64,000 nt of DNA, taken from the NCBI RefSeq assembly GCF_965240435.1, contig NZ_CBDEKO010000003.1. One strand, 5' to 3'. The DNA comes from Moorena producens. GTDB lineage: Bacteria; Cyanobacteriota; Cyanobacteriia; Cyanobacteriales; Coleofasciculaceae. Each line of letters starts with the position of its first letter. Within the stretch, counting starts at the first letter, position 1. Below, piece by piece: positions 16,985-58,452 of the stretch. The position numbers and the translations under genes were made by a program. A model generated the notes under the pieces. It made no database searches. It had not been told where the DNA came from and saw only the letters and a program-made list of their open reading frames with translations.

Positions 16985-17110
16985 CAAACTGAGATCTTGC
17001 ACCATTGTCATTGTCTTGATGCAGTCGCTCATGGGGGAAACCCCCAAGACCGCGCTGCATCGCTAATCCTAGGGTGGGCAGTGCCTACCAACGGGCTTTG
17101 CAAGCTTCAT
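16985..17110. repeat. dispersed ~100-bp element, copy 1 (ctgagatcttgcaccattgtcat ... gggtgggcagtgcctaccaac ... gggctttgca)
   Basis: Shares the three blocks ctgagatcttgcaccattgtcat, tagggtgggcagtgcctaccaac and gggctttgca with 22349-22445. It also embeds a cccccaagaccgcgctgcatcgc unit. Confidence 0.7.
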
Positions 17111-17288
17111 TATCTGTCTGCTGCACTGCCCAGCCTAAATGAACTAATTACCAATTACTAATTACTAATTACTAATTACCAATTAGCCAAGCAGGAATTT
17201 TGATGAAGTTTTGTGAATTAGCGCCAAAGTGGCGACATCGCCATAACTTATCTAGCTAAATTATTAAAGTTTCCAAAAACACAGATCA

Positions 17289-17445
17289 GATCAAGTCCGG
17301 TTAACTAATCATAAAGATCCCTGATGGTGGGAATTTAAACTTGGGAATTTGTCATTGGTAATTCGTAGTTTAAGATTACCCATCATCCATTACAGTAACC
17401 CCAAAATCCAAGGACTATTTTGGATTTGATTAACCGGACTTGATC
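17289..17445. mobile_element. MITE-like element with 16-bp terminal inverted repeats gatcaagtccggttaa / ttaaccggacttgatc
   Basis: The arms at 17289-17304 and 17430-17445 are exact reverse complements. The interior has no ORF. A partial copy (atcaagtccggttcaa) is at 39462-39477. Confidence 0.55.
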
Positions 17446-17681
17446 TGAATTCACCGGAAAATTGGCATGTAATATCAATTAGCTAAAATAATGCTATAGA
17501 TGCTTAATTGGTAATTGATCATTGGTAATTGATCATTGGTAATTGGTCATTGGTAGTTGGATTAGTATTCTCCATACCCCATTAACTAGTACCTATTAAC
17601 AAAAGGTAGTCGCAGGCAACATAGTAGCTAATTAATAGAAGTGCTTATTTTCCCCAATTGTCTACTATTGGAGTTTGTAAC

Positions 17682-17993
17682 ATGAGTAACTTCTCAATTT
17701 CTGATCTGCCTTCTGCTGGTTCAGCTCTGTTTTCGGAGTCTGAAGGATTCCATGAGTTCATGAACGATCTAACCGAAGATGAACTCAAGGGTATAGAAGG
17801 CGGCGGCAAAAAAAACAAGGGTGGCTTTTTCTTTGGCAGTAAAAGTAGCAAGGGTTTTAAATCCAGCCGGTTCAAACCCAGCCGCTCCAAATCCAGCCGT
17901 TTCAAACCCAGCAAGTTCAAACCCAGCAAAGGGGGCTTTTTCTTTCCACATCCCTATGGCTTCTTTCCACACAATTGTAGACCAGTGCATTAG
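17682..17993 (+). CDS. double-glycine-leader precursor peptide with a cationic Ser/Lys/Phe-rich core (candidate RiPP or bacteriocin precursor)
   Basis: The leader ...MNDLTEDELKGIEGGG fits the LSxxELxxIxGG double-glycine consensus. The core is GKKNKGGFFFGSKSSKGFKSSRFKPSRSKSSRFKPSKFKPSKGGFFFPHPYGFFPHNCRPVH. A GGAG Shine-Dalgarno lies 8 nt upstream of the ATG at 17682. Confidence 0.6.
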   Translation: MSNFSISDLPSAGSALFSESEGFHEFMNDLTEDELKGIEGGGKKNKGGFFFGSKSSKGFKSSRFKPSRSKSSRFKPSKFKPSKGGFFFPHPYGFFPHNCRPVH

Positions 17994-18281
17994 GCCATAT
18001 AGATTTCAGTTTCCCTGAGTAAATGGATAAAGTCCTTTTCATTACTAAGGGATAGGGATTTTAGGAGTCAGATGTTGGGGACATTTTTATCCCACAACTT
18101 ACGCAAAACTGGGCACCAAACTCGATAACTATTAGGGTGTAATAACACACCATATAGGTAGATTTACTGCGTAAGTACTGACTCCCAAAATTTCATAAAA
18201 TAACTGATAATCAGGGTTTTATTCCATCAGTGGTTTCTAAGCAATAGTTGAGGCTATTGCCGGATAGTAAATCCGGTAATA

Positions 18282-19472
18282 TTGATAATTATAATGACAT
18301 TTTTATTAAGCTCTCAAAACGTTTTCGAATATCTAGTTGAACAGGGTATTTGTAAGCCAACAGACCAAGATAAAATCCAGATTAAACCAATATCCTGTAA
18401 AAACTTTAATTTGCTAGTCAGTTTTTCCAATGGTCGCAATCTTTTGGTTAAGCAAGAGCCTCATAATGGAGAAGGAAACACCTTAGGTGAGTTGCATAAC
18501 GAATGGCGAATTCAGGAGTTTTTACAAAACTTTCCTGAACTGATCGCAATTCGTCCCCTAATATCGGAGCCAATTCATTTTGATCACAGTTGCTCTATTA
18601 TTGTTTTTAACTATCTCAATGACTATTGCGACTTAACAGATTTTTATGATCAAAAGGAGGTTTTTCCCACTGGGATCGCAGCCCAGCTCGGAGCTAGTAT
18701 TGCTACAATCCATCGCAGCACTCTAGACCGTCAGGAATATAAAGACTTCTTTGCTTCCAATGGAAAAGAGTTCCTTGAGCAAACCCCTAACTTGCTTTAT
18801 GGGCTAGAAGGAATTGGACCGGAAATTTTTGCAATCTTTTGTGCAGATGGGATTGAATTTTTTAAACTTTATCAGCGCCATGAGAGCATAGGGCAAGCGA
18901 TCGCAGAACTTAACAGAGCTTGGCAGCCTTGCTGTTTGACCCACAATGACCTAAAGCTGAGCAACGTTTTAGTCCACCTTGAGTGGGAGCAAACCCTCTC
19001 AAACCCGGAGTCTGAAGCTACGAATATTCTGCGACTGATTGATTGGGAGAGGTTCACTTGGTCAGATCCAGCATTTGATTTAGCTACGATTATTGCTAAC
19101 TACCTAACCATTTGGCTAAGTAGCTTAACGGTTAACAGAAGTATTGATGTTCAAACTGCTTTACGCTTAGCTAAAATTCCCCTTGAGGTAATTCAACCAA
19201 GCCTTGTTGCTCTCACTAACGCTTATTTTGATTACTTTCCAGAAATACTTCAGCGTAGTCCTGATTTTTTGAAACGAGTTATACAATTTACTGGTTTTAT
19301 CTTGATTGAAAAAATTCAGACAAGGATCGAGTACCGGAAAATTTTTGGTAACACAGGAGTCTGTATGGTTCAGGTGGCTAAACGTTTGTTATGCAATCCG
19401 GACGATTCAATCCCCATTGTTTTTGGGACAACAGCCTCTGAATTAACTGATCTTAGCGCGATTCCCGCCTAA
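18282..19472 (+). CDS. aminoglycoside-phosphotransferase-like (protein-kinase-fold) kinase
   Basis: Catalytic-loop HNDLKLSNVLV (HxDxxxxN) and metal-binding IDWE, as in APH/CotS/LanK-type kinases. N-lobe beta strands NLLVSFSNGRNLLVKQE contain the conserved Lys. Confidence 0.6.
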   Translation: MIIIMTFLLSSQNVFEYLVEQGICKPTDQDKIQIKPISCKNFNLLVSFSNGRNLLVKQEPHNGEGNTLGELHNEWRIQEFLQNFPELIAIRPLISEPIHFDHSCSIIVFNYLNDYCDLTDFYDQKEVFPTGIAAQLGASIATIHRSTLDRQEYKDFFASNGKEFLEQTPNLLYGLEGIGPEIFAIFCADGIEFFKLYQRHESIGQAIAELNRAWQPCCLTHNDLKLSNVLVHLEWEQTLSNPESEATNILRLIDWERFTWSDPAFDLATIIANYLTIWLSSLTVNRSIDVQTALRLAKIPLEVIQPSLVALTNAYFDYFPEILQRSPDFLKRVIQFTGFILIEKIQTRIEYRKIFGNTGVCMVQVAKRLLCNPDDSIPIVFGTTASELTDLSAIPA

Positions 19473-19642
19473 TCCCTTTTCTGTAATTGGATGCAACATC
19501 TTATTTTCGGATCATTAGTAAAAAGAACAATTTGTTGCAGACCGACAGGACAATTGGTCTGAATCAGGACTTACGCGGTTAAGTGGATTGCGCCCCCCTG
19601 CCCCCCAAAATTGGGGGGTAATGATGTCAAAGTCCCCCAGAA

Positions 19643-20848
19643 TTGGGGGATTTAGGGGGCAGTTGCGTAAGTCCTGTGAGTATTTTGAGTGCCAACTGTT
19701 TGATCATGCCATTACTAAATTCTTTGCGAAATCAACTACCTGATTCTTCTCCTGATTCTGCTGTTGCGCGAGAGCTAGATATTCTAGAAGATATCGTTAG
19801 CAACCTTCAGATTCAACCTAACTTCTGTATTAGTCATCCAGATTACAAACCCCTGGAACTTTCTGCTGAGATGCTAGACCGGGTTCAGCAACTACCTGTG
19901 GAGATCCAGAATAAGTATCTGAGCCTGCAACTGCTCAGTTTTCTGTACGACATCTATGACAACGGTTTCGATAAAAGCACAGAATCAGCTCAAGCCAATT
20001 CAACTGATTTACCGCTTCACCCAAATGTAGAAAACAATACTGTGATGGGGCTGAACTTGGAGTTTTACCAGCAGCTGTACGAAAGTAATACTGGGACTGG
20101 TTACTTTGAAGCAAGTTGGTTGGTAATCAGGGAGGAGAGTGATGGCAAGTTGGCTGTACACAAGAATGGTCTGACCTTACACATCAGACCTGAGTATTAC
20201 TTACCACCAGGAGCTCAATCTGCTACTGTCGGTACCTTAGTCGCTATCCGAATGCCTCCTAATCTAGTTGAACACGGATTCTATGTCGCGGTTGGGAATG
20301 CTGGTCCAGTCAATGGTGGTCCAGTCAATCAGAACATTCGAGATCGTGACTACCAGATAGTGAACATCTATTTTAATCTCAGTCCCGAAGGTGCAGTTGC
20401 TCTCATCAGAGCGATCACCGAGCAACTCAATGAAATTACCATTCCCTTTACCTTTAAGGTGGTAGATGACCCCGCTAACTACGACCGCTACGATTCAGGG
20501 GTTCTCTGCTTTGAAAAGAGCAATTATGAGACAGTCCATCCCATCCTTGAGAGTGTTTATGCTCAACACCAATCCCATTTTGAGATGGAAGTACCTCTAT
20601 TTACCAAGCAGCTAGCACCAGGACTGGCTCTATCAGAGGAACCAGTCCATAAATTTACGGCTGAAGAAAGTTTCCGGATGAACCGTTGGCAAATGGTTGC
20701 TAATGGCTTACTAGAAGTTTGGCAAAACGGTAACGATTCTCCAGAAGGTCGGATGAACTCTATACAACAACAGTTCTCCCAGTTTGGGATTGAATTGTGG
20801 CGTCCCTACTTGAATGCTGACTCAGAAGACATTTATCGAAAAATTTGA
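19643..20848 (+). CDS. hypothetical 380-400-aa protein encoded next to the APH-like kinase (possible HopA1-like partner; unverified)
   Basis: ORF with no motif I can assign. The true start is probably the internal ATG near 19706 (MPLLNSLRNQ), because the first ~60 nt overlap a palindromic cccccaaaattgggggg repeat element. Confidence 0.4.
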   Translation: MGDLGGSCVSPVSILSANCLIMPLLNSLRNQLPDSSPDSAVARELDILEDIVSNLQIQPNFCISHPDYKPLELSAEMLDRVQQLPVEIQNKYLSLQLLSFLYDIYDNGFDKSTESAQANSTDLPLHPNVENNTVMGLNLEFYQQLYESNTGTGYFEASWLVIREESDGKLAVHKNGLTLHIRPEYYLPPGAQSATVGTLVAIRMPPNLVEHGFYVAVGNAGPVNGGPVNQNIRDRDYQIVNIYFNLSPEGAVALIRAITEQLNEITIPFTFKVVDDPANYDRYDSGVLCFEKSNYETVHPILESVYAQHQSHFEMEVPLFTKQLAPGLALSEEPVHKFTAEESFRMNRWQMVANGLLEVWQNGNDSPEGRMNSIQQQFSQFGIELWRPYLNADSEDIYRKI

Positions 20849-20911
20849 CACTCCCCGGTCGCCCAACGGTAGTGGGTTAGCAGTCAGTGTCTGCATCAGT
20901 TTGTGCAGAAG

Positions 20912-21469
20912 TCAGACAAAGTGTCGTTCGATCAGGGTGGGAATTTGCTGGGGAGCCACTTCGCTGTAGCGAGCTTTGTCTGGCATCATCACTAGGTTGG
21001 GGCCATGTTTGCACTGTTTGAGGCAGCCAGTTTCTTTAATCTTGACTTGGTCTTCTAAACCATGGTCCTTTAAACTCGATGCGATCGCATTACACACCGC
21101 TTTACCCCCCCGTTTCCGGCAACTGGATTTCTGACAAACTAAAATACTCGCTTTCCGGCTGGGAGTTTTGGGAACCAAAACAGTTGTTGGCTGCTGGTGG
21201 GGGGGAGCAGCAAGGCTCACCTCATAGGCTTTAAGTATAAGTTTTCGAGTTTTGCGCTTTAGTTTGCTGGTGCCACTCACCTCAATCCACGCCCCAGGGA
21301 TAATCGCTGGATCCAAGCTCTTTCTGAGAGGTTTAGATAACTTAATCCAATATTCGATATTTGAAACAGTAATTCTTAAATACTTGATTTTATAGCCATC
21401 CTTAATGACAAAGTCTAATAACTGTCCTACTACACTGAACTCTGAGACTGGCTCTTTCAACTTAGACAT
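20912..21469 (-). CDS. protein with C-terminal thioredoxin-like [2Fe-2S] ferredoxin domain
   Basis: C-terminal Cys pattern VCQKSSCRKRGG...CNAI...GCLKQCKHGPNLVMMPD matches NuoE-like 2Fe-2S ferredoxins. N-terminal domain unassigned. Confidence 0.45.
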   Translation of the reverse strand: MSKLKEPVSEFSVVGQLLDFVIKDGYKIKYLRITVSNIEYWIKLSKPLRKSLDPAIIPGAWIEVSGTSKLKRKTRKLILKAYEVSLAAPPHQQPTTVLVPKTPSRKASILVCQKSSCRKRGGKAVCNAIASSLKDHGLEDQVKIKETGCLKQCKHGPNLVMMPDKARYSEVAPQQIPTLIERHFV

Positions 21470-24070: not shown

Positions 24071-25972
24071 ATGTCTAGATTAGCGTTTAGCCCAGGAGCA
24101 GGACCAGAACAGTTAATCAATGGACGTTATCAAGTTATTGACATCCTTAACCGTGTGAGCTGGGGTCAAACTTGTATTGCGTTAGACACTTACCGACCCG
24201 GAAATCCCGAATGTATTGTTAGACAATTCCGTCCGGTTACTGATGACCCTGACTCCTGGCAAGCTGCAAAAGATATATTTCATCGTGAAACTAAAATTTT
24301 GGAGATTATCTGTCAGCATGACCAAGTTGCCAAAATTTTAGATTGCCTAGAAATTGACCATAGCTTCTACATAGTTCAAGATTTCATCCCTGGACGACCC
24401 CTGAGTGAGGAACTCAATCAACCCTGGAGTGAAAGCAGAGTAATCAATCTGCTACAAGAGGTTTTAGAGATTTTGGCATTTGTGCATCGCCAAGGGGTGA
24501 TTCATGGTGATATCAAGCCAGACAATCTGATCAGACGATCAGACGATAGCAAATTAGTTTTAACTGACTTTAGCGGTATTAAGCAGGTACGGACACCATT
24601 AGTTGGTGTTCAATTTAGTGCCATAGCGGCTTTGGGCGCATTCGGGTATATACCAACAGAGCAAATTCTCGGTAAACCTCGTCCCTGTAGTGACCTATAT
24701 GCTGTAGGGATGATTGCCATTGAGGCACTCACAGGACTCAAACCCTTACACCTAGAAGAAGACCCATTAACCGGAGAAGCCCTTTGGCAGGACTACGCCA
24801 CAGTCACTAAAGATTTCGCTGGCATTATTCAGCAGATGGTGCGCTATTACTTCAAAGACCGTTACCAGTCTGCTGATCAGGTTTTGGAGGCACTCCATTC
24901 CTTAACTAGTTCTAAACCATCTATAAACTTACCAATGTCTTCAGCACCACCAACATCCCCAAACCCCTACAAACAAAAAACTGACGATAATCTGGGTGAG
25001 CCAATTGAACCAGAGACTCTTGAAACAGAGGAAACAGAGGAAACAGAGGAAACAGAGGAAACAGAGGAAACAGAGGAAACAGAAGACATTTATTATCCCT
25101 CTGTGCCTACTATTCCTACCAGAAGGTCTAGTGGACTTAATCTCACCGCCATGGGAGTTTCCGCATCTGTAGCCTTGTTAGTAGTAGCTGGAGGCTTCTT
25201 GTTCTCATCGGGTGGCAACCAGGCAGAAACTAAGCTAGCACAGGCTGAGGAAAAGTACCAGCAAGGGGATTTAGACGCAGCGCTGAAGCTGGTAAAATCG
25301 ATACCGGAAGATAGTGAAAACTATCAAGATGCTCAAAATGCGATCGCTCAGTGGAAAAGAGATTGGCAAGATGCCAAAGCCCTATTCCCCCAGATCAAAA
25401 CCGCCTTTGAGCAACAGAAATGGGTAGAGGTAGTTGAGCAGGCTAGTCAGATTCCTAATATTGTCTTCTGGCAACGGCAAATACAACCTATGGTCAGCCA
25501 AGCTCAAGCCAGTCTTGAGAAGGAAGCTTACCAGTTACTAGAGCAGGCTTACAAGCAGGCTATCGAGAAAGACTTTACTGGTGCACTCAACACATTTAAA
25601 CAAATCCCAAAGGGAACAAAAGCCTACGCTACAATTCAACAAAAAATTCCGGAGTACACTCAAAAGCGAAACATAAAAGCAAACTTCCTTCTTCAGCAGG
25701 CTTACAATCGAGCTGCTCAGAAAGACTTTACCAGTGCATTGGTATATTTGAAAAAAATTCCTAAAGATACCGATGCCTATCCTAAGGCTCAGTCAAAAAT
25801 TGTTGACTATACCGCTAAGCAAGAAATTCGGGCTAAGTATCTCTCAAAGATGGCTTATAACCAAGCTGTTTTAAAGAACTACACTAAGGCTTTGGATTAT
25901 TTGAAACAAATTCCTAAAGGTACCTCCGTCTATGCCAGTGCTCAAGCCACAATTCAGCAGTATGCTCGATAA
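24071..25972 (+). CDS. Ser/Thr protein kinase with an ETE-repeat linker, one TM helix and C-terminal ~45-aa repeats
   Basis: Kinase subdomains VIHGDIKPDNLI (catalytic loop) and LTDFSGIK (DFG-like). (ETE)x7 is encoded by a 9-bp repeat at 25021-25083. TM segment AMGVSASVALLVVAGGFLF. The C-terminus has three repeats of ...FT.AL..LK.IPK.T.AY...Q.KI..YT.K... Confidence 0.85.
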   Translation: MSRLAFSPGAGPEQLINGRYQVIDILNRVSWGQTCIALDTYRPGNPECIVRQFRPVTDDPDSWQAAKDIFHRETKILEIICQHDQVAKILDCLEIDHSFYIVQDFIPGRPLSEELNQPWSESRVINLLQEVLEILAFVHRQGVIHGDIKPDNLIRRSDDSKLVLTDFSGIKQVRTPLVGVQFSAIAALGAFGYIPTEQILGKPRPCSDLYAVGMIAIEALTGLKPLHLEEDPLTGEALWQDYATVTKDFAGIIQQMVRYYFKDRYQSADQVLEALHSLTSSKPSINLPMSSAPPTSPNPYKQKTDDNLGEPIEPETLETEETEETEETEETEETEETEDIYYPSVPTIPTRRSSGLNLTAMGVSASVALLVVAGGFLFSSGGNQAETKLAQAEEKYQQGDLDAALKLVKSIPEDSENYQDAQNAIAQWKRDWQDAKALFPQIKTAFEQQKWVEVVEQASQIPNIVFWQRQIQPMVSQAQASLEKEAYQLLEQAYKQAIEKDFTGALNTFKQIPKGTKAYATIQQKIPEYTQKRNIKANFLLQQAYNRAAQKDFTSALVYLKKIPKDTDAYPKAQSKIVDYTAKQEIRAKYLSKMAYNQAVLKNYTKALDYLKQIPKGTSVYASAQATIQQYAR

Positions 25973-32991: not shown

Positions 32992-35900
32992 ATGAAGAAT
33001 ATAATCAGGGATTCGGCAGAGCATGGGTTACCATCGTCTTCTATCAACCCAGACCCTGCTAGCAATTTATCAGTGGTGCTTCAAAGCTTGACCCTAGACT
33101 CAGTCGATCCAAAGCTCAACTACGAATTTAGTCAATCGTTTGACCTTGATAACTTCCAGCTAGGGGATAAAATCCTCGCCTATAATACACCAGAGCTATC
33201 CAAAGATTCTGTTGAGATTGAACAAGATCACCAATATCTTTACCTAGTTTGTCAGGGGCGGGTACGACTACTAGGCTTTGATGCTGAAAAACAGCGGGAG
33301 GTTTCCATACAGGTACTCGAAGAAGGGGAAACCTTTGGTGCCTATGATCTCTTAGGTAGTCTATCCTATCCTTACAGAGCGATCGCAGGGAGTTCAGGAC
33401 AAGTTGCTCGTATTTCCCTAAATCAACTCTTGCCTTGGTTGGAACGGTTGCCGAAGTGGTCGGAAATCCTGGGGCAACAAGCCCAGCACCGGCAATGCCT
33501 AATTTTCTTCAAGACTTTGACCAAATTGCGTACGCTTAACGGTGTTAGCCTAAATCAACTGTTGCCCTACATCGTAGAAACACGCATTGAGGCTGGGGAG
33601 TCTCTGGTGTCCTCTTCCCAAGCTGGGCATTGCTGGCTACGTAGTGGTCAAATGGCAACGCCAGAAGGAACACAGGCAAATTCCTCTGCTCCATTTCCTA
33701 GCATCGGAGACAGTTGGGGATATCCGATGCCAGTACCAACAGATTGGATTGCCCAAACTGATGTATTGCTTTACCAGCTGCCTCAAGAGCATTGGCAAGC
33801 GGCTTGCGCGATCGCACCAGTTTTGGCTAACTCCACCGACTCACCAGATCAGGAGAACAGGCAAAGTGCTAAAAATGGTGACGGTAAATCTCCATCGGCT
33901 CAAGGCTTAGTTAACAAAACCCATACTCCGTCACCACATCCAAACCAAACTAGAGCACGACCGACTCGGCGAGTTTTAGAACCTCCTAAGCAACAAACGC
34001 CCCTTGAAGCCAGTCAGTCAGAAAGCTTTGATTTTCCTAAACCAGCAAAGCAGGGTTGGAAATTCCTAAGGTTTTGGCAGCGCTATCCTTTTATTGAGCA
34101 GCAAGCTTCCTCGGATTGTGGTGCTGCCTGCTTAGCCATGATTGGGCAGTATTGGGGTAAACGGTTTGCTCTCAACTCCCTGCGGGAACTGGCGGGAGTG
34201 GGCCGTTCTGGTTCATCCCTCAAAGGTTTATCTAAAGCAGCAGAAAGTTTAGGCTTTCAAGCTAGTCCAGTTAGGGCTTCTTTAGGTCGCTTAGCCGATC
34301 GGAGTAATCCTTGGATTGCTCACTGGGAAGGGGATCACTATATTGTTGTCTACCAGGTAAAGGGTAATAAGGTACTTGTTGCCGATCCAGCAGTGGGGAA
34401 GCGATCGCTTGCTCGCAAAGACTTTCTCCAAGGTTGGACTGGGTATGCCATGCTATTGGATCCAACTCCCCAACTAGCAATTACTCCCAGCGACAAACGT
34501 TCTTTAGGGCCGTTTTGGGGGTTGCTATGGCCCCATCGCTCAGTCCTGCTGCAAATTATCTTGGCTACCCTCATCCTTCAGGTTTTTGGTCTGATTACTC
34601 CCTTATTTACCCAGATCATTCTTGACCGGGTGATTATCAACAGAAGCCTTGTCACTCTCAATGTCTTCTCCATTGGTCTAATCATCTTTGGCATTTGGAC
34701 GATTGGGGTTAGTATAACCAGACGCTACTTGCTCGACTACTTTTCCAATCGGCTTAGTCTCACCTTCGTCAGTGGGTTCATAAACCATACCCTGACTTTA
34801 CCTCTGAAGTTTTTTGAATCCCGCCAGGTGGGGGATATCCTGACCCGAATTCAGGAAACTGGAAAAATTCAGGGTTTTATAACTCAGCAAGCGATTGCTA
34901 CTTGGCTAGATGTGATAATGGTGTTTGTCTATATTGGACTGATGCTCTACTACAATTGGCGTCTAACTGTCCTGGTGCTGGCAACGATTTTACCCATCGC
35001 CATCTTGACTGTGATTGCCAGTCCCTTTCTACGCCAGGTGTCCAGGGAAATCTTTAAAGAAGCAGCCCAACAAAATTCTATGTTAGTGGAAATGATGTCA
35101 GGGGTTGCTACTGTGAAAACGGCGGCTTCGGAACAAGAAGTGCGCTGGCGCTGGGAAGATCGCCTCACCAATCAGTTGAATGTACAATTTAAAGGTAGGA
35201 ACCTGGCTAACGGGTTGGGGTCAATTAGTTCTCTAATTAATACTCTCAGCAGCACCGCTTTGCTTTGGTTTGGCGCTAGCTTAGTAATTAGTGAGCAGCT
35301 TACTATCGGTCAGTATGTCGCGTTTAATATGCTCATTGGCCGAGTTACTGGTCCGATTTTGGCTCTCGTGAATCTTTGGGATGAGTTTCAAGAAATCTTG
35401 GTGTCTGTAGAACGGCTTAATGATGTCTTATCTGCTAAACCAGAGGAGAATCCTCAAGAACCGATGCTGGTTCTACCTGAGATTAAGGGTGATGTAATAT
35501 TGGAAGATGTTACCTTCCGATACTCGGAGGATGAGGATCGCAATATCCTACAGAATATTTCCCTACAGATTAAGGCTGGAGAAACCATTGCTCTAGTGGG
35601 GCGCAGTGGCTCGGGCAAGAGTACCTTGGTCAAACTACTGCAAGGTCTCTATCATCCGACTAATGGTCGTATTTTGGTGGATGGACACGATATCCGCCAT
35701 ATTTCCCCCCAATCTTTGCGTTCTCAAATGGGTGTGGTACCCCAAGAATGTTTCTTGTTCTCGGGGACAATTGTCGAAAATATCACTCTCTACCGACCGG
35801 ATTTCAGCCTAGATCAAGCGGTAGAGGTAGCCAAACTAGCAGAAGCTCATGCCTTTATTCAAGGTATGACTTTGGGATATAATACAAAAGTCGGAGAGCG

Positions 35901-36219
35901 AGGTTCTACCCTTTCTGGTGGACAGCGACAAAGGATTGCCATAGCCCGAGCCCTATTGGGCGACCCCAAGATTCTGATTCTGGATGAAGCGACTAGCTCC
36001 CTAGATACAGAATCCGAGCGCCGCTTTCAACAAAACTTAGCTCGCATTAGTCGCGATCGCACTACCTTCATCATCGCCCACCGCCTCTCTACAGTGCGCA
36101 ATGCTGACTGCATCCTTGTCCTAGACCGAGGTATTCTGGTGGAGAAAGGCAACCATGAGGAACTCATGGATCGTCAAGGTCTTTACTATCATCTAGCGCA
36201 GCAGCAGCTAGATCTTTAA
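32992..36219 (+). CDS. HetC-like bacteriocin/peptide exporter: cNMP-binding-like N-domain, C39 peptidase and ABC transporter
   Basis: C39 active-site SSDCGAACLAMIGQYWGK with downstream HYIVVY. Six TM helices. ABC motifs GRSGSGKSTL, LSGGQRQRIAIARAL, ILILDEATS and IIAHRLST. The N-terminal ~330 aa contain a cNMP-binding-like beta-roll (LYLVCQGRVRLL...GETFGAYDLL). Confidence 0.85.
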   Translation: MKNIIRDSAEHGLPSSSINPDPASNLSVVLQSLTLDSVDPKLNYEFSQSFDLDNFQLGDKILAYNTPELSKDSVEIEQDHQYLYLVCQGRVRLLGFDAEKQREVSIQVLEEGETFGAYDLLGSLSYPYRAIAGSSGQVARISLNQLLPWLERLPKWSEILGQQAQHRQCLIFFKTLTKLRTLNGVSLNQLLPYIVETRIEAGESLVSSSQAGHCWLRSGQMATPEGTQANSSAPFPSIGDSWGYPMPVPTDWIAQTDVLLYQLPQEHWQAACAIAPVLANSTDSPDQENRQSAKNGDGKSPSAQGLVNKTHTPSPHPNQTRARPTRRVLEPPKQQTPLEASQSESFDFPKPAKQGWKFLRFWQRYPFIEQQASSDCGAACLAMIGQYWGKRFALNSLRELAGVGRSGSSLKGLSKAAESLGFQASPVRASLGRLADRSNPWIAHWEGDHYIVVYQVKGNKVLVADPAVGKRSLARKDFLQGWTGYAMLLDPTPQLAITPSDKRSLGPFWGLLWPHRSVLLQIILATLILQVFGLITPLFTQIILDRVIINRSLVTLNVFSIGLIIFGIWTIGVSITRRYLLDYFSNRLSLTFVSGFINHTLTLPLKFFESRQVGDILTRIQETGKIQGFITQQAIATWLDVIMVFVYIGLMLYYNWRLTVLVLATILPIAILTVIASPFLRQVSREIFKEAAQQNSMLVEMMSGVATVKTAASEQEVRWRWEDRLTNQLNVQFKGRNLANGLGSISSLINTLSSTALLWFGASLVISEQLTIGQYVAFNMLIGRVTGPILALVNLWDEFQEILVSVERLNDVLSAKPEENPQEPMLVLPEIKGDVILEDVTFRYSEDEDRNILQNISLQIKAGETIALVGRSGSGKSTLVKLLQGLYHPTNGRILVDGHDIRHISPQSLRSQMGVVPQECFLFSGTIVENITLYRPDFSLDQAVEVAKLAEAHAFIQGMTLGYNTKVGERGSTLSGGQRQRIAIARALLGDPKILILDEATSSLDTESERRFQQNLARISRDRTTFIIAHRLSTVRNADCILVLDRGILVEKGNHEELMDRQGLYYHLAQQQLDL

Positions 36220-36239
36220 TAGATCGTTAACAAGTACTC

Positions 36240-36300
36240 ATTAGTCATTAGTTATTAGTTATTAGTTATTTAGTCATTAGTCATTTGTAAATACCAACAG
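36240..36300. repeat. tandem repeat (agttatt/agtcatt)
   Basis: tagtcattagttattagttattagttatttagtcattagtcatttg. Confidence 0.85.
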
Positions 36301-36378
36301 ACCCTGGTGAGTCACAAAGGACTAATGACTAAGAAAATTTGAAGCTACCTATGACTATATCAAACTCTGTAAAAATTT

Positions 36379-36389
36379 GCCAATTTGGC
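36379..36389. promoter_or_regulatory. GCCAA-N-TTGGC palindromic motif instance in the hetC-like/hlyD intergenic region (with a degenerate second copy at ~36487)
   Basis: aaaaatttgccaatttggcaacac sits inside one of two ~90-bp direct repeats at 36316-36400 and 36405-36510. Confidence 0.4.
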
Positions 36390-37020
36390 AACACAGTGAT
36401 CTGAAAAGGACTAATGACTAAGCACAAATGAAATTTGAAGCTAGCTATTGCTATGTCAAGCTTTGTAAAAAGCTGCCAAAAATCTGCCAATTTAGCAACA
36501 TACTCAGATGAAATTGATCTTTTATCAGAAAAGTTGAAAAGCGCTGTTTGAAGAGAAGGGGATTATAAACAGTTGTTCAGATATGGCTCCACACCCATAT
36601 ATAGCGCAACCGTTTAGAATCCCCTGAGAATCCCCCATGAAGCACACTCACAGGAGAGTTTAATTCCAATTCCTTTGTTTAATTGATTCCCATGCACCCC
36701 ACCAAAGGTGAGACGAAGGTAACTTGGAGAGCCTAACCCTAGGGGTCAGGTTGCTCAAGTCCACACCTCACAGCGTGCTCAGCCAATAGGTTTGACCGAC
36801 CGACGGCTACTTAAAGGGGAAGGGTTTAAGTTCTGATCCCGGGGTGCATTTAAGCTATCTGAAAAAGGGGCAAGTAGAGTCAGGTAATGCCAAAGATTTC
36901 GGTCTGCCCAACAATACCAAACTCGCCCCGGGAAGCTCAGGGCAGCACGAGAATTGGTCGCTTTCTTTCCCAAAACATTGGTCATTTCCCTAAAATGTTA
37001 ATTTAGCGTGATCTACCACC

Positions 37021-38622
37021 ATGACACAAGCAAAACCAATAAACTCCCCACCTGAGGCGGCTACGAGTCGTCAGGGTAACGTCGTTTTAATGCCATCAGG
37101 TCGCCTGAGACCTGATTATGACCAAGAGGCAGCCTCACCCAGCACAGAGGTAGGAACCAATACTGCCAATGCTCCTAGTACCTCCAAATGGTCAACCTCC
37201 ATACAAACTACCCTCGACCAGCCTCCGGCGAATCTTCCCCGGCTGCTGATGTTGGGTGGATTAAGCTTCTGTACGATATTTGTGGCTTGGGCAACGTTTG
37301 GACAGATTGATGAAGTCGGTAAAGCTCATGGAAGCTTAGTGCCAAAAGGCGACGTTTATAAAGTTGACCCGATTGAGCCAGGCAAGATTGCTAGTATTAA
37401 TGTCAAAGAAGGGCAAGCGGTTAAAGCTGGGGAAGTCTTGGTGGAACTGGATACAGAGCTTGCCACTCAAGAAGTAGAGCGTTTACAGAAAGTCCTTAAT
37501 GCAGACCGGATTAAGTTAGTTCAGATGCAAGGACTGCTTGAAAGAACCCGTCTGGAAGCAGAAACTCGTGAGCAGATTACCCAAGCAGAAGTTCAAGCAC
37601 AACATGCTTCGATCGCACGAGCACAAGCTAGTGCATCGGCAATTAGACAACAAATCATTCAACATCAGTTAGCTAAAGCTGCTAATCGCGAACGATTACA
37701 ACGGATGAAGCTGGTGCAGGCGACAGCCCAAGAACTGCTCCAGCAACGGCGGGCTAATGTAGTGGCTCTTAAAGAACGACTCGATAATCTTAAGCCTCTG
37801 TTGGCAGAAGGAGCAATCTCCAAAGAACAGGTATTTCAAGCAGAACAAAGCTTTCGTGCTAGCCAAAGTGCTGTTACCGAAAGCAAACTGCAAGAGGGTT
37901 TGAGTACTCGCGAACAAATCTTTCAAGCTCAGCAAAGTATACGCGATCGCGAAGCGGCGACTAGCCAAAGCCAAGGTGAGCTACAACAGACTTTAGCAGA
38001 AATCAAGCGACTAGAAGCAGAATTAGAGCATCGGCAAGCAACAGGACGCACCACTCGCCTAGAAGCACAGCAGAAAATTCAACAGTTGGAAGTGGAACTG
38101 ACCCAAATCAAAGCTAGAATTTCTGAAAATGAAACCCTGGTCAATACTGCTAAAACCAGGCTCAAACAGAAGTTTCTTAAAGCGCCAGTGGATGGGGTAA
38201 TATCTTCCCTCAACATTTCTAATACTGGTCAAGTCGTGCAACCAGGACATAGCATCGCCGAAATCGCTCCTCAAGGTGCCCCCCTAGTGCTATCGGCAAG
38301 TTTGCCTACTCGGGAGGCAGGGTTTATTAACGAAGGAATGCCGGTGCAAGTGAAATTTGATGCCTATCCCTATCAGGATTACGGCATCATCAAAGGCACG
38401 GTGATTTCCATCTCTTCCGATGCTAAAGCCGATCAACTAATGGGTTCAGTCTATAAGGTAAAAGTGTCCCTTGACCGTGACTATGTGATTGAAGATGATG
38501 AAATCATTCGGTTTAAGGCTGGTCAGACCGCCAATGCTGACATCATCATCCGCCGCCGTCGGATTATCGATTTCTTATTGGATCCGATGCGACAGCTGCA
38601 AAAAAGTGGCATCGATCTATAG
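37021..38622 (+). CDS. HlyD-family membrane fusion protein (T1SS periplasmic adaptor)
   Basis: N-terminal TM segment LLMLGGLSFCTIFVAW, a long coiled-coil and C-terminal beta domain ending ADIIIRRRRIIDFLLDP, as in HlyD/CvaA. Confidence 0.85.
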   Translation: MTQAKPINSPPEAATSRQGNVVLMPSGRLRPDYDQEAASPSTEVGTNTANAPSTSKWSTSIQTTLDQPPANLPRLLMLGGLSFCTIFVAWATFGQIDEVGKAHGSLVPKGDVYKVDPIEPGKIASINVKEGQAVKAGEVLVELDTELATQEVERLQKVLNADRIKLVQMQGLLERTRLEAETREQITQAEVQAQHASIARAQASASAIRQQIIQHQLAKAANRERLQRMKLVQATAQELLQQRRANVVALKERLDNLKPLLAEGAISKEQVFQAEQSFRASQSAVTESKLQEGLSTREQIFQAQQSIRDREAATSQSQGELQQTLAEIKRLEAELEHRQATGRTTRLEAQQKIQQLEVELTQIKARISENETLVNTAKTRLKQKFLKAPVDGVISSLNISNTGQVVQPGHSIAEIAPQGAPLVLSASLPTREAGFINEGMPVQVKFDAYPYQDYGIIKGTVISISSDAKADQLMGSVYKVKVSLDRDYVIEDDEIIRFKAGQTANADIIIRRRRIIDFLLDPMRQLQKSGIDL

Positions 38623-53443: not shown

Positions 53444-56400
53444 ATGCATCAGAAAACGGTCGGTTTAGAAGAATCAGGGCAACCACCAGATTCCCTTGGC
53501 CAATACCCGACCCATAAATCTTCCGAGGTTATTGAACACCTAATCGCGAACTGGTTGGATAAGACACTAGTAAATACACTATTACCTGAATTTAGTCAAT
53601 CCTTCCAAATTCATAACTTTGATCTAGGTGATGAAATTATACCCCATCCTAGACGGGATTTAAGCCAAGATTCTGTTCAAAATGAACCAAATAAGTATTT
53701 TTACGTGGTCTGTCGCGGGCGGGTGCGGCTGCTAAGCTTTGATGAGGAAAAACAGCGGGATGTATCCGTACAGGTTCTTGAAGAGGGGGCAAGCTTTGGG
53801 GCTGAGGAACGGTTGTGCAACCTATCTTATTCTTACCAAGCGATCGCTGCGAGTTCAGGACAGATTGCTCGGATGTCCTTAGCTGAACTCGAATCTTGGT
53901 TAGAACAGCTACCGGAGTGGCTTGAACACCTACAGCAACAAGCTCAGCACCGGCAACGCTTGATTTTCTTCAAGACCTTGACAGAATTGCGTACCCTTGA
54001 CAGCATCACCCTACAGCAATTGTTGCCCTACCTGGTAGACACATGGATTTCCGCTGGGGAGTCCTTAGTTGAGTCTGGCCAAGTTGGTCGTTACTGGCTA
54101 CGTAGTGGTCAGATTGAAAGGGGCCCAGTTCAAGAGAATTGCCGACTCACCATTGCAAGGGGCGAAAGTTGGGGCTATCCTCAGCCAGTGCCGGAAGATT
54201 GGATTGCCCAAAGCGATTTATGGGTAACCCATCTACCAAAGGAACATTGGGAAACTGCCCAACTCCTGGCACCAGTGCTGGCAAGGTTGAGTCCACAGAC
54301 GGGTCAAAGCTCTGAAAATGGACACCAGAAATCAGACGCCACTAGCACCATACTTCACCAAGTCCGTACTCAGTCCGGTCACAGAGTACCGCTAATTCCA
54401 TCCAACCTCCCTACCAATGGAAATGCTGAAACAGAAAGTAACTCGACCCAGGCTGAGTCTGAACTGATCCCATTTCCCGTACCGACGAAGCGGCATTTTC
54501 TTCAGGGGTTGTGGCAACGCTATCCCTTAATTGAACAGCAATCGTCTTCCGATTGTGGCGCTGCTTGCTTGGCAATGATTGGACGCTACTGGGGCAAACG
54601 ATTTAGTTTGAATTCCCTACGGAATCTGGCTGGGGTGGGGCGTGCTGGGTCATCCTTGAAAGGGTTAGCCAGAGCATCAGAAACCTTGGGATTTCAAGCT
54701 ACTCCAGTCAGAGCTTCTTTAGCTCGCCTAGCGGATCGGAGTAACCCCTGGATTGCTCACTGGCAAGGTGATCATTATATAGTTGTCTATTGGGTCAAAG
54801 GGGAGAAGGTACTTGTTGCGGATCCAGCTGTAGGAAAGCGATCGCTTTCTCGACAACAATTTCTAGAGGGTTGGACAGGATATGCACTGCTTTTGAATCC
54901 CACTCCCCAGCTAGCAGCGACTCCCAATCAAAAGATTTCTCTGAATCGCTTTTGGGGATTGCTATGGCCCCATCGCATAGTCCTGTTGCAAATTATCCTA
55001 GCTTCCCTACTGCTCCAGGTGTTTGGTCTGATTACCCCCCTGTTTACCCAAATCATTTTGGATCGGGTGGTGGTTAACAAAAGTTTTGTTACCCTCAATG
55101 TCTTTGCCATTGGTCTAGTCATCTTTGGACTTTGGAGCATGGGCTTGAGTGTCACCAGACGCTACTTGCTCGATTACTTTTCCAATCGACTCAGTCTTAC
55201 CTTTGTCAGTGGCTTTATTAAATATACACTCACACTACCCCTGAAGTTTTTTGAATCCCGCCAGGTGGGAGACATCCTAACCAGAGTCCAGGAAACTGGG
55301 AAAATTCAGGCGTTCCTCACTCAGCAAGCCATTGCCACTTGGCTGGATGTGGTAATGATGTTTGTCTATGTGGGGTTGATGCTCTACTACAACTGGCACC
55401 TAACCTTGCTGGTGCTGGCAACGATTGTACCGATTGCGATTTTGACCATAGTTGCCAGTCCATTTCTACGGCAAGTGTCCAGGGAAATCTTTAAAGAAGA
55501 GGCGGCACAAAACTCCCTGTTAGTAGAAATGATATCGGGGGTAGCAACTGTCAAAGCAGCAGCCTCTGAACAAGAGGTGCGCTGGCGCTGGGAAGACCGC
55601 CTCACGGGTCAGTTGAATATGGAATTCAAAGGACAGAACTTGGCCAACGGCTTAGGGTCAGTGAGTGGCTTGATTAATAACCTCAGCGGCACGGCTTTAC
55701 TATGGTTGGGAGCAAGTCTGGTAATTCAGGAACAGCTCACGATTGGTCAGTTTGTGGCATTTAATATGCTCATTGGTCGGGTGATTAGCCCGATTTTGTC
55801 TTTGGTGGGACTTTGGGATGAGTTCCAAGAAATATTGGTATCCGTGGAACGGCTCGATGATGTCTTGACCACCCAGCCAGAAGAGAATACCCAAAAACCC
55901 CTGATGCCATTGCCTGCGATCGCGGGGCATGTTCAGTTTGACAATATCAGCTTTCGCTACAGTGAGGATGATGAACAATACATCCTTCAGAACATTTCCT
56001 TCGAGGTTGCCCCTGGAAAGACCATAGCCATTGTTGGACGCAGTGGCTCGGGCAAAAGTACCTTGGTCAGGCTGCTCCAAGGACTCTATCAGCCAACTAC
56101 AGGCCGTATTTTGATTGATAGCCACGACATCCGACATGTTTCTCCCCAGTCTTTGCGCTCTCAATTAGGTGTAGTACCCCAAGAATGCTTTTTGTTTTCA
56201 GGGACAATCTTAGACAACATCACTTTATACAAACCTGAGTATAGTCTCGAACAAGGGGTAGAAGTGGCCAAATTGGCTGAAGCTCATGTGTTTATTCAAA
56301 ACCTGCCCCTGGGATACAACACCAAGGTTGGGGAGCGAGGGTCTAACCTGTCTGGGGGACAACGGCAACGGATTGCGATCGCCCGAGCCTTGCTGGGTAA

Positions 56401-56656
56401 CCCCAAGATTCTGATTCTCGATGAAGCGACTAGCTCCCTAGATACGGAATCAGAGCGACGTTTTCAACAAAATTTAGCTCGCATTAGTCGCGATCGCACT
56501 ACCTTCATCATTGCCCACCGTCTTTCTACGGTGCGCAATGCCGACTGTATACTCGTCCTCGACCAAGGTCTGATCGCAGAGCGCGGTACCCACTCCGAAC
56601 TCATGGCTGAGAAAGGTCTGTACTACCACCTAGCCCAGCAGCAGCTAGATCTTTAA
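53444..56656 (+). CDS. HetC-like exporter paralog 2 (cNMP-binding-like domain, C39 peptidase and ABC transporter)
   Basis: SSDCGAACLAMIGRYWGK C39 motif and the same ABC motifs as the 32992 gene. Roughly 60-65% identity to it over the full length. Confidence 0.85.
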   Translation: MHQKTVGLEESGQPPDSLGQYPTHKSSEVIEHLIANWLDKTLVNTLLPEFSQSFQIHNFDLGDEIIPHPRRDLSQDSVQNEPNKYFYVVCRGRVRLLSFDEEKQRDVSVQVLEEGASFGAEERLCNLSYSYQAIAASSGQIARMSLAELESWLEQLPEWLEHLQQQAQHRQRLIFFKTLTELRTLDSITLQQLLPYLVDTWISAGESLVESGQVGRYWLRSGQIERGPVQENCRLTIARGESWGYPQPVPEDWIAQSDLWVTHLPKEHWETAQLLAPVLARLSPQTGQSSENGHQKSDATSTILHQVRTQSGHRVPLIPSNLPTNGNAETESNSTQAESELIPFPVPTKRHFLQGLWQRYPLIEQQSSSDCGAACLAMIGRYWGKRFSLNSLRNLAGVGRAGSSLKGLARASETLGFQATPVRASLARLADRSNPWIAHWQGDHYIVVYWVKGEKVLVADPAVGKRSLSRQQFLEGWTGYALLLNPTPQLAATPNQKISLNRFWGLLWPHRIVLLQIILASLLLQVFGLITPLFTQIILDRVVVNKSFVTLNVFAIGLVIFGLWSMGLSVTRRYLLDYFSNRLSLTFVSGFIKYTLTLPLKFFESRQVGDILTRVQETGKIQAFLTQQAIATWLDVVMMFVYVGLMLYYNWHLTLLVLATIVPIAILTIVASPFLRQVSREIFKEEAAQNSLLVEMISGVATVKAAASEQEVRWRWEDRLTGQLNMEFKGQNLANGLGSVSGLINNLSGTALLWLGASLVIQEQLTIGQFVAFNMLIGRVISPILSLVGLWDEFQEILVSVERLDDVLTTQPEENTQKPLMPLPAIAGHVQFDNISFRYSEDDEQYILQNISFEVAPGKTIAIVGRSGSGKSTLVRLLQGLYQPTTGRILIDSHDIRHVSPQSLRSQLGVVPQECFLFSGTILDNITLYKPEYSLEQGVEVAKLAEAHVFIQNLPLGYNTKVGERGSNLSGGQRQRIAIARALLGNPKILILDEATSSLDTESERRFQQNLARISRDRTTFIIAHRLSTVRNADCILVLDQGLIAERGTHSELMAEKGLYYHLAQQQLDL

Positions 56657-56817
56657 CCCTGGCATTTATCAAAGTTTGTAAATGTTTTTCGTAAAAAATC
56701 GCTCTCGGGGTGATTAAGTATATCCCCCACTGTGTTCAAGATTGACTTTCGCGAACGTTCGTGTTCTCAGTTCAAATCAATACACACAACACTACCAGTG
56801 ATTATCGGTGAACTATC

Positions 56818-58452
56818 ATGAACAAACCAGAAGCATCTACCCCGTCTAGAGAGGGACTCCCTAAGGGAGAAACCCCTCACCCTAATCTAACCTCAGCTGA
56901 GATTAGATCGATCTATGGAGGGACAGCGGTATCAGCACCACTAGTCCGAGCATCACCTAATCATGTCCCAAATCCGGTCACAGCAACATCATCACTAGGA
57001 GCTACCAACACTGAAAACTGGTCAACAGCCCTACAAAATTTACTGGATCAGCCACCATCGGTACTCCCCCAGAGACTGCTTTTGGGCGGATTCGCCTTCT
57101 GTATGGTTTGTGGGGTTTGGGCAACCTTTGGGCAAATTGACGAAGTGGGTAAAGCCACAGGCAAGTTAGTGCCAAAAGGAGAAGTGTATAAAATTCACCC
57201 GATTGAATCTGGCAAGGTCGCCAAGATTGCGGTCAAAGAAGGGGAATCGGTTACCGCTGGGCAAGTCTTGGTGGAACTGGATACAAAACTTGGTGCTACG
57301 GAAGTAGAGCGTTTGGAGCAACTGATCAATGCTGACCAAATCAAATTAATTCAGATGCAAGGGCTGATTGAAAACATTCGCCAAGAAGCCCAAACCCGTC
57401 AGCAAATTGCCAAAGCGGACATTGACGGACAACAGGCAGCTATCGATCAGGCACAGACTAAAGTAACTGCCTTACGAGAACAACTGATCCAACATCAGCA
57501 GGCAAAAGTCGCCAGTCAGGACAGACTAGAACGGCTAAAACAGCTCAAGGCTACTACCCAAGCACTGCTCCAGCAACGACAGGATGATGCCTTTGCCCTT
57601 AAGGAACGCCTCGATAATCTCAAACCCCTGTTAGCATCAGGGGCAATCTCAAAAGAACAAGTATTTCAAGCAGAACATAGCCTACGAGCGAGTCAGCGGG
57701 TGATTACCCAAACCCAACTGCAAGAAGCAGCCAGTAACCAAGACCAGATTTATCAAGCCCAGCAGAGTATACGCGATCGCAATAGCTCCATCACCCTCAC
57801 TCAGAGCGATCTCAACCAAACCTTAGCAGAAATCCAACGACTTCAAGCAGGTCTAACTCAGAAGCAAGCGGAAGTCCATCGGACTCAGCTCGAGACCAAG
57901 CAAAAACTTCAGCAGTTGGAGATCGAACTGACTCAACTAAATGCCAAAATTGCTGAAAACCGCAATCTGCTAACTAGTGCGAAAGCCAGGCTCAAACAAA
58001 AGTTTCTCTATGCACCGGTAGATGGAGTAGTTTCCTCCCTCAACGTTGCCAATATTGGTGAAGTCTTTCAATCCGGTCAAACCATTGCCGAAGTAGCGCC
58101 CCAAGATGCGCCCCTGGTGTTATCAGCCAGTTTACCTAATCAGGAGGCAGGCTTTATCAAACAAGGAATGCCGGTGCAAATCAAGCTTGATGCCTATCCC
58201 TATCAGGAATACGGCATCATCAAAGGGAAAGTTACTTCCCTTTCTGCTGATGCCAAAACTGATCAACAACTTGGTTCAGTTTATGAGGTAGAAGTTTCCC
58301 TAAACCGTGACTACGTTAAAGAGGACGATCAAATGATCCGATTCAAAGCTGGTCAGACAGCCAAAGCTGACATCATTATCCGCCGCCGTCGGATTGTGGA
58401 TTTCTTGTTAGATCCGATCCGACAGCTGCAAAAAGGTGGTGTCAATCTATAG
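56818..58452 (+). CDS. HlyD-family membrane fusion protein, paralog 2
   Basis: TM segment LLLGGFAFCMVCGVW, coiled-coil, C-terminal ADIIIRRRRIVDFLLDP. Paralog of the 37021 gene. Confidence 0.85.
   Translation: MNKPEASTPSREGLPKGETPHPNLTSAEIRSIYGGTAVSAPLVRASPNHVPNPVTATSSLGATNTENWSTALQNLLDQPPSVLPQRLLLGGFAFCMVCGVWATFGQIDEVGKATGKLVPKGEVYKIHPIESGKVAKIAVKEGESVTAGQVLVELDTKLGATEVERLEQLINADQIKLIQMQGLIENIRQEAQTRQQIAKADIDGQQAAIDQAQTKVTALREQLIQHQQAKVASQDRLERLKQLKATTQALLQQRQDDAFALKERLDNLKPLLASGAISKEQVFQAEHSLRASQRVITQTQLQEAASNQDQIYQAQQSIRDRNSSITLTQSDLNQTLAEIQRLQAGLTQKQAEVHRTQLETKQKLQQLEIELTQLNAKIAENRNLLTSAKARLKQKFLYAPVDGVVSSLNVANIGEVFQSGQTIAEVAPQDAPLVLSASLPNQEAGFIKQGMPVQIKLDAYPYQEYGIIKGKVTSLSADAKTDQQLGSVYEVEVSLNRDYVKEDDQMIRFKAGQTAKADIIIRRRRIVDFLLDPIRQLQKGGVNL

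Follow-up and report, generated by a model that had tools for sequence, protein, structure and literature searches.

The locus considered here raises the question of whether three consecutive genes of a cyanobacterium, which encode a double-glycine peptide, an aminoglycoside phosphotransferase (APH)-fold kinase and a HopA1-like protein, form a pathway for a modified ribosomal peptide, and what kind of peptide it would make. The genes lie in a 64,000-nucleotide (nt) stretch of Moorena producens contig NZ_CBDEKO010000003.1, which we refer to as the window. A preliminary description of this DNA had proposed a split dehydratase, kinase plus lyase, acting on a peptide that is made by the ribosome and modified after translation (RiPP). 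Sequence comparisons supported this hypothesis at the level of homology and gene neighbourhood. The trio is probably a minimal Family 1A RiPP-like cluster with a LanK-type kinase and a HopA1/LanY-type partner, whose product would be linear, or at most one-ringed, and contain dehydroalanine and/or phosphoserine. The hypothesis is right but not new, because Eyles, Vior, Lacret and Truman (2021, Chem Sci; PMC8153245) had already catalogued Family 1A bioinformatically and listed a peptide with the identical core. The additions made here are an E-type active site that covaries across the lyase family, and the minimal make-up of the window cluster.

In ribosomal peptides, dehydro-amino acids can arise through the joint action of a kinase and a HopA1-type lyase, a route recognised only recently. 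Of the predicted groups with such pairs, the largest comprises hundreds of cyanobacterial clusters, and the literature searched contains no characterised product for it. With one precursor, two enzymes, a core perfectly conserved across Moorena strains and unambiguous masses, the window trio is among the simplest test cases. The lyase family splits into two almost mutually exclusive active-site types, and this split decides how safe a homology-based annotation as 'dehydratase' or 'class V lanthipeptide' is. The dichotomy and the simplicity of the trio together make it a good experimental entry point. All three open reading frames (ORFs) are present on the plus strand as first described, and the features of the locus are the following.

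17682..17993, plus strand: precursor gene, 103 amino acids (aa), recognised by its ORF, its leader profile match and near-identity to Moorena sp. SIO4G3
17859..17927, plus strand: tandem repeat of 15 nt (5 codons), 4.6 copies, which gives rise to the (S/K)RFKPS-type core repeats, from Tandem Repeats Finder
18294..19472, plus strand: LanK-like APH-fold peptide kinase, 392 aa, from Pfam APH, NCBIfam LxmK (below cut-off) and a structure model
19706..20848, plus strand: HopA1/LanY-type partner, 380 aa from MPLLNSL, from Pfam HopA1, a profile match in the Protein Data Bank (PDB) and a fold search

The precursor ATG is preceded by GGAG, which sits 12 nt to its 5' side. The leader comprises residues 1-41 (nt 17682-17804) and terminates in ...DELKGIEGG, a boundary set by alignment with relatives. 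The double-glycine leader proposed earlier was confirmed, and it fits a 180-member leader family (jackhmmer, E 4e-24). The core (residues 42-103, 62 aa, nt 17805-17990) is GKKNKGGFFFGSKSSKGFKSSRFKPSRSKSSRFKPSKFKPSKGGFFFPHPYGFFPHNCRPVH. It contains 11 Ser, no Thr, 1 Cys, 12 Lys, 4 Arg, 12 Phe and no acidic residue, with an isoelectric point of 11.7 and a charge of about +16. A Ser-rich core with a single Cys had been described, and this stood, but the Ser count of about 13 given with it did not. The FKPS repeats proved real, and correspond to the tandem repeat listed above (period 15, 81% matches, score 89). The computed core masses are 7041.67 Da (monoisotopic) for the unmodified form, 6843.56 Da after 11 dehydrations and 7921.30 Da with 11 phosphates.

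A contig of Moorena sp. SIO4G3 is syntenic with the window, including the trio, at 97.5% nt identity. The precursor gene differs between the two strains at 1 of 312 nt (S11P), and the intergenic DNA flanking it at 38 of 516 and 12 of 297 nt (4-7%). The core sequence is identical in three Moorena genomes, while the leader varies. The Moorea producens PAL-8-15-08-1 peptide WP_070396421_4 in dataset 2 of the electronic supplementary information (ESI) of Eyles 2021 has this same core, with a leader that differs at 4 residues. Judged from such comparisons, the plus-strand ORF is a real precursor peptide gene, beyond chance. In the public annotation of SIO4G3 (locus L081 6095-6316, JAAHIG010000210.1), an antisense 73-aa ORF was called and the plus-strand precursor was left unannotated; the antisense ORF corresponds to window 17769-17990 on the minus strand. 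A promoter and terminator scan of 17100-21100 gave counts at the level of shuffled sequence and nothing usable.

The kinase ORF opens at a TTG at 18282, and its homologues begin at the ATG at 18294 (MTFLLSS), 300 nt past the precursor stop. The APH-fold kinase reported downstream of the precursor, with its HNDLKLSN and IDWE motifs, was recovered by Pfam APH at E 1e-9 (39 bits against a cut-off of 23.2). Its motifs are intact, including the catalytic loop H217-N-D219-L-K-L-S-N224, the magnesium-binding D250 (IDWE), K53 and E70; K53, E70, H217, D219, N224 and D250 were invariant in a 34-sequence alignment. Within the window, tblastn with the family kinase matched only 18300-19448. The tie to LxmK comes only from the NCBIfam LxmK model, which matched at 3.6e-19 over model positions 22-342 of 347, and from fold comparison. 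In the latter, the kinase model, with a predicted local distance difference test (pLDDT) value of 82, had LxmK (9dk3_A) as its top PDB match, with template modelling (TM) scores of 0.67/0.75. Searches of PDB sequences by phmmer and with the family profile did not find LxmK, and returned only weak PsiK and APH-family matches.

The partner ORF opens at a TTG at 19643, with homologues beginning at the ATG at 19706 (MPLLNSL), which leaves a protein of 380 aa. The similarity to HopA1 that had been guessed for this 401-aa ORF was borne out. Pfam HopA1 (PF17914) matched at E 8e-52 (176 bits against a cut-off of 22.7) across all 170 profile positions, and the cyanobacterial family profile matched LxmY, chain B of PDB 9DK1-3 (E 6e-9). 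A review identifies 9DK1 as the lexapeptide dehydratase LxmK/LxmY, with chain B as the lyase, and summarises the LxmKY structure (PMC12141560). When the AlphaFold model of the partner (pLDDT 72) was compared with the PDB, LxmY ranked first (E 7e-13), followed by the Pseudomonas HopA1 effector. Class III lanthipeptide synthetase chains (E >= 0.04) and SpvC (E ~0.15) were weaker matches, at ranks 6-15.

The chemistry expected of such a pair is seen in cacaoidin biosynthesis, where CaoK phosphorylates Ser/Thr and CaoY then eliminates the phosphate (PMC9486802). In CaoY, K219A abolishes elimination, R187A nearly abolishes it and R229Q impairs it, and the Lys base has Tyr236 as its conserved partner (PMC9486802). 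We mapped the active-site residues of the window protein through the LxmY alignment; the spacing Arg-32-Lys-10-Arg-7-Tyr suits both LxmY and CaoY. The window partner has E189, N220, K251, R261 and C268, where canonical relatives have Q189, R220, K251, R261 and Y268. The equivalents of CaoY K219 and R229 (Lys251 and Arg261) are retained. P0003 and the proteins of Moorena sp. SIO4G3 and Moorena producens 3L share the combination N220-K251-R261-C268, and the nearest relatives have D/E/N at the first tetrad position and C/H/Q/Y at the last. R-K-R-Y was found in 80 of the 101 sequences in the alignment, made up of LxmY itself and 79 of the 100 proteins encoded by the loci, and in 110 of the 120 closest database matches.

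Canonical relatives have 109 positions with conservation of at least 97%, nearly all of which the window lyase keeps. Its sub-clade consistently alters three of them, namely Q189 to E, R220 to N/D/E and Y268 to C/H/Q. General decay of the lyase was considered and rejected, as only these three columns consistently change. No new basic residue that could compensate for the lost Arg was found in the sub-clade. A midpoint-rooted neighbour-joining tree did not resolve this group; with the root placed on a canonical sequence, a 10-member clade contained all nine variant sequences and P0035.

A broader sampling placed this variation in context. A profile search of 1.84 billion proteins gave 3065 matches at E <= 1e-3, from which 149 more diverse representatives were examined. 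Of 81 representatives with Glu or Asp at 189, 79 had a residue other than Arg at position 220 and 55 of these 79 kept the Lys, and Arg220 co-occurred with a non-acidic residue 189 in 37 of 39. The Glu189/non-Arg site with the Lys kept was found in 55 of 143 representative clusters, kinase-HopA1 fusions included, and because of this it looks like a working alternative site. We therefore read the E-type site as what appears to be a second, widespread active-site configuration and not as decay. The named E-type representatives are cyanobacterial, and one of them is a kinase-HopA1 fusion protein. No characterised E-type lyase was found in a comparison whose range stopped short of TvaD, TsaD, ThoD, SprY and KinC. 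Several representatives (P0251, P0256, P0288, P0290, P0296, P0306, P0314 and others) are 790-831 aa long with a C-terminal HopA1 domain; one of them, from Oculatella sp. LEGE 06141, is annotated 'phosphotransferase', an annotation that points to a natural kinase-HopA1 fusion. All seven proteins listed by number have Glu at the position equivalent to Arg187.

The neighbourhood of the genes, which had been put forward earlier as a test, is conserved. When one genome per species was scanned, relatives of the HopA1 protein were encoded at more than 570 cyanobacterial loci, of which 80 were fetched and analysed. All 80 are cyanobacterial save one metagenome bin labelled 'uncultured bacterium'. The kinase gene lies directly upstream of the HopA1 gene in every locus with that sequence present. 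The window leader profile retrieved 180 small ORFs with the same leader but mutually unrelated cores, the leader consensus being approximately M-A-x-I-x-I-S-D-L-x-P-x-G-S-x-L-F-x-D-S-E-x-[FY]-[LM]-x-E-L-...-G-G. Such peptides occur in 76 of the 80 loci; the remaining four are truncated at contig ends or have an interrupted kinase region. They share the strand of the enzymes in 173 of 179 cases, with a median of 2 and a maximum of 7 per locus. Ser or Thr is present in all 164 unique cores (median 21%), and Cys in 79 of them. Relative to the proteins of the loci, Ser is enriched 1.55-fold, Thr 1.66-fold and Cys 2.26-fold in the cores.

Other genes recur around the related pairs, including those for an aldo/keto reductase, a PpiC-type isomerase-like protein, an ATP-binding cassette (ABC) exporter of the nitrile hydratase leader peptide (NHLP) type, HlyD and a helix-turn-helix protein. 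The aldo/keto-reductase-like protein, of about 338 aa, is encoded directly downstream of HopA1 in 43 of the 80 loci (for example L036 9122-10138). By analogy with LanJ, it might, speculatively, reduce dehydro-amino acids to D-amino acids. The window lacks this gene. The closest relatives of the partner (P0002, P0004, P0005 and P0023) have a directly adjacent C39 exporter, and sub-clade members without the N-K-R-C (NKRC) combination likewise have a canonical C39 ABC exporter directly adjacent.

Many related loci also contain a second kinase-HopA1 pair, which follows the first HopA1 gene at a distance of about 1.5-3.5 kb downstream (L003, L010, L012, L013, L015, L020, L024, L027, L030, L033, L037, L038, L043, L044 and L048); the window has no such pair. 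In the copies examined, HNN or YNT replaces the catalytic HND loop of the second kinase, and the second HopA1 protein has lost the catalytic Lys, with tetrads IYRR, VELK and IELK. The precursors located between the two pairs have Cys-containing cores, such as SIVCVGGSVACSVIIIGNTCSRT and ...SLLLCN. By analogy with LanX, this pseudokinase and pseudolyase could act as a cyclase or scaffold.

The window cluster is minimal, with one precursor and two enzymes, and without a cyclase, reductase or adjacent exporter. The immediate neighbours of the trio are housekeeping genes, encoding a CLC channel, TldD/PmbA, Tab2, SnoaL, ferredoxin, a Dps-like ferritin, a phosphoesterase and a Ser/Thr kinase. Our domain scan covered the window ORFs of at least 110 aa, save a few. 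Among these there was no gene for LanC, LanX, a second APH-like protein or a flavoprotein decarboxylase, and none for YcaO/TfuA or other thioamitide tailoring enzymes. The sole other kinase-like gene among them encodes a eukaryotic-type Ser/Thr protein kinase (24071-25972). Three further features of the window bear on the trio.

19565..19676, no strand: small element resembling a miniature inverted-repeat transposable element (MITE), bounded by perfect terminal inverted repeats of 12 nt (CAGGACTTACGC) and containing CCCCCAAAATTGGGGG palindromes
32992..38622, plus strand: ABC exporter with cyclic nucleotide monophosphate (cNMP)-binding and C39-peptidase domains (32992-36219) and HlyD-type adaptor (37021-38622), from Pfam Peptidase_C39, ABC and HlyD
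53444..58452, plus strand: second cNMP/C39 ABC exporter (53444-56656) and HlyD adaptor (56818-58452), from Pfam domains

The exporters lie 12-33 kb downstream of the trio and are 33-35% identical to those adjacent to the kinase-lyase pair in close relatives; the first also scored above the cut-off of TIGR01193. They are plausible candidates for a leader protease and exporter that would serve the precursor in trans. Because two C39 exporters occur in the same window, the label 'orphan' that had been given to the precursor does not strictly apply. The MITE-like element is not part of the pathway. It widens the gap between the kinase and lyase genes to 233 nt, compared with tens of nt in most related loci. 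Its terminal repeat has 5 matches in the window against 0.11 expected, and outside the element the repeat is seen at 18169-18180 and 58453-59088. In a megablast search of the trio against plasmids, only a 40-nt piece of this element matched (Pseudanabaena plasmids).

Family 1A, as defined from HopA1/phosphotransferase RiPP-like clusters, comprises 570 peptides in 183 clusters, from Cyanobacteria only, with a conserved double-glycine leader and variable cores beside the HopA1/phosphotransferase pairs; its products are unknown and active-site variants are not discussed (PMC8153245). The window has the same three components. It encodes a PF17914 protein, an adjoining phosphotransferase on the same strand and a peptide with a conserved double-glycine leader and a core of the hypervariable type, all in a cyanobacterial host. 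It differs in that typical members have several precursors together with an aldo/keto reductase, a PpiC-like protein, an NHLP-type ABC exporter and HlyD, whereas the window has a single precursor and none of the others adjacent.

LxmK/LxmY and CaoK/CaoY share with the window the split into an APH-fold kinase and a HopA1-fold lyase, and LxmK/LxmY are the best structural matches of the window proteins. However, sequence identity is only about 15-17%, the hosts are actinobacterial, and the window has neither LanX cyclase, LanD decarboxylase nor LanJ reductase, and a single core Cys. The window leader is also predicted to be removed at the GG site, unlike in those systems. Measured against class V, the window lyase has the fold and family but not the full catalytic set Arg187/Lys219/Arg229/Tyr236, and no LanX-type cyclase of pseudo-kinase fold was present among the scanned ORFs. 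The locus is not a demonstrable class V lanthipeptide cluster, because it has no cyclase, only one Cys, and a lyase in which two of the four catalytic residues are missing. In thioamitide pathways, TvaC/TvaD and TsaC/TsaD, a kinase and a HopA1-like protein, are needed for Ser/Thr dehydration (PMC8153245); the window differs in the absence, noted above, of YcaO, TfuA and other tailoring genes.

The class III/IV synthetases (LanKC, LanL) and OspF/SpvC follow the same phosphorylate-then-eliminate logic, and their lyase domains were among the weaker structural matches. In contrast to the window pair, each of these is one multidomain enzyme that includes a LanC-like cyclase domain and has a Lys/His/Lys/Tyr catalytic set. 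Finally, peptides exported by C39 proteins, such as class II bacteriocins and those of cyanobacterial HetC-type exporters, resemble the precursor in their GG-ending leader, and C39 exporters adjoin the pairs of its closest relatives. The window leader nonetheless belongs to a separate and longer conserved family, one linked to the kinase-LanY pair, and the peptide did not reach the Bacteriocin_IIc gathering score.

Taken as a Family 1A cluster, the trio would work as follows. By analogy with CaoKY and LxmKY, a heterodimer of the kinase and the LanY-type protein would recognise the 103-aa precursor through its conserved 41-residue leader. The kinase would phosphorylate some or all of the 11 core serines, and its partner would beta-eliminate the phosphate to leave dehydroalanines. 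Elimination is the default in the family, and has been demonstrated only in actinobacterial systems (CaoKY, LxmKY and Tva/Tsa). The leader would then be cut after Gly41 and the cationic core exported by a C39 ABC exporter acting in trans. With neither a cyclase nor a reductase or decarboxylase in the cluster, and with a single Cys in the core, the product would be linear or have at most one ring. It would be a Lys/Phe-rich peptide of about 7 kDa with dehydroalanine and/or phosphoserine, and not a classical polycyclic lanthipeptide. A linear, strongly cationic peptide with dehydroalanines seems the most likely form.

Several observations weigh against this reading. Its weakest link is elimination by the putative E-type site (Glu189, Asn220, Lys251, Arg261, Cys268). 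The partner lacks the equivalents of CaoY Arg187 and Tyr236, replaced by Asn220 and Cys268, so that two of the four residues of the set differ and dehydration is less certain than homology implies. The comparison of the kinase with LanK, which had been suggested earlier, came out mixed. LxmK was the top structural match and the NCBIfam match nearly full-length, but its score of 69 bits is far below the equivalog cut-off of 315, and methylthioribose kinases and PsiK score almost as well structurally as LxmK. The ratio of nonsynonymous to synonymous polymorphism (pN/pS) relative to the nearest strain, calculated from small counts, is about 0.5 for the kinase and lyase, compared with 0.1-0.2 for the neighbouring housekeeping genes. 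The MITE-like insertion separates the kinase gene from the lyase gene, and three genes often seen in related loci, for an exporter, an aldo/keto reductase and a PpiC-like protein, are missing next to the trio. No Family 1A product has been reported in the literature searched, where only Eyles 2021 and reviews were found.

A peptide that retains its phosphoserines is the serious alternative for the product. The E-type HopA1-like protein would in that case no longer eliminate, but would serve only as the structural and leader-binding partner of the kinase, and a poly-phosphoserine, Lys/Arg-rich peptide would be exported. Eleven phosphates would move the core charge from about +16 to about -6. 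A non-catalytic role is plausible because CaoK depends on CaoY for solubility (PMC9486802). The replacement of the Arg187 and Tyr236 equivalents next to a fully intact kinase points in this direction, as does CaoY-R187A, which yielded mostly phosphorylated peptide (PMC9486802), and the sub-clade has no compensating basic residue. The cores of the sub-clade (window, L001, L082, L083, L086 and L088) are also hydrophilic, Ser/Thr-rich and often charged, unlike the hydrophobic cores of canonical loci. Even so, we consider loss of elimination unlikely. Lys251 and Arg261 are retained, the changes are limited to three co-varying positions in a protein that shows no general decay, and the Glu189/non-Arg site with its Lys is common enough among the representative clusters to look functional. 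Some -H2O species also persisted with CaoY-R187A (PMC9486802). A bolder version, which we hold to be quite unlikely, is that the E-type branch, which has Glu189 and Lys251, no Arg220 and usually no Tyr268, works without (complete) beta-elimination and that the Moorena cluster exports a stable poly-phosphoserine, Lys/Arg/Phe-rich peptide with tandem KPS(R/K)F repeats, structural or matrix-forming and not antibiotic. Such a composition recalls the phosphoserine/lysine peptides of silica precipitation or adhesive coacervates, and retained multi-site O-phosphorylation would, if true, be a new outcome of RiPP modification.

Two other explanations appeared improbable. The product could be a true class V-type lanthipeptide, in which Cys98 adds to one dehydroalanine, spontaneously or through a distant cyclase, to form one ring near the C-terminus. 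The enrichment of Cys in the family cores is consistent with this, and loci with Cys-rich cores carry the pseudokinase-pseudolyase pair as a possible cyclase. The window has only the single Cys in its 62-residue core, genes for LanC, LanX, a flavoprotein decarboxylase or another APH-like protein are absent from the scanned ORFs, and the other NKRC-type precursors (L001 and L083) have no Cys at all, which makes ring formation very unlikely here. The preliminary description had also allowed for an unmodified cationic double-glycine bacteriocin, cleaved and exported by a C39 transporter, with the kinase and HopA1 genes as mere neighbours. The core does resemble a cationic aromatic antimicrobial peptide, the window encodes C39 exporters, and the end of the leader has weak similarity to bacteriocin models. 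These matches fall well short of their cut-offs, however (Bacteriocin_IIc, 14.4 against 27.1 bits, covering only the leader end; the lactococcin-G leader, 16.9 against 37 bits). The leader family stands beside kinase-HopA1 pairs, on the same strand, in 76 of 80 loci from many cyanobacterial genera, and the trio is syntenic in Moorena sp. SIO4G3, so we regard this explanation as extremely improbable.

The rest of the window contains a separate double-glycine peptide locus (32992-45918). Besides the first C39 exporter and its HlyD adaptor, it encodes a HetP-family protein (38708-39229; NF037966, 94 bits), an array of at least six peptide genes (40925-44353) and, after the array, a PpiC-type isomerase-like protein (45151-45918). 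The leaders of the array, MLISDLNHLESVEASQVQGG, MIISDLNHLE...VVGG and MNISELEYFELEATDEPILGG, differ from that of the precursor. No Pfam or NCBIfam model was matched by any of the array peptides. Their cores are rich in Asn, Thr, Ser and Gly, and three near-identical copies of 110-111 aa start at 40925, 41557 and 42188. Three RTX calcium-binding repeat proteins, one of them with a C-type lectin domain, are encoded at 46607-51983, between the two C39/HlyD pairs. Near the start of the window, two NACHT-HEAT STAND NTPases are encoded in tandem (1048-4485 and 4678-7881).

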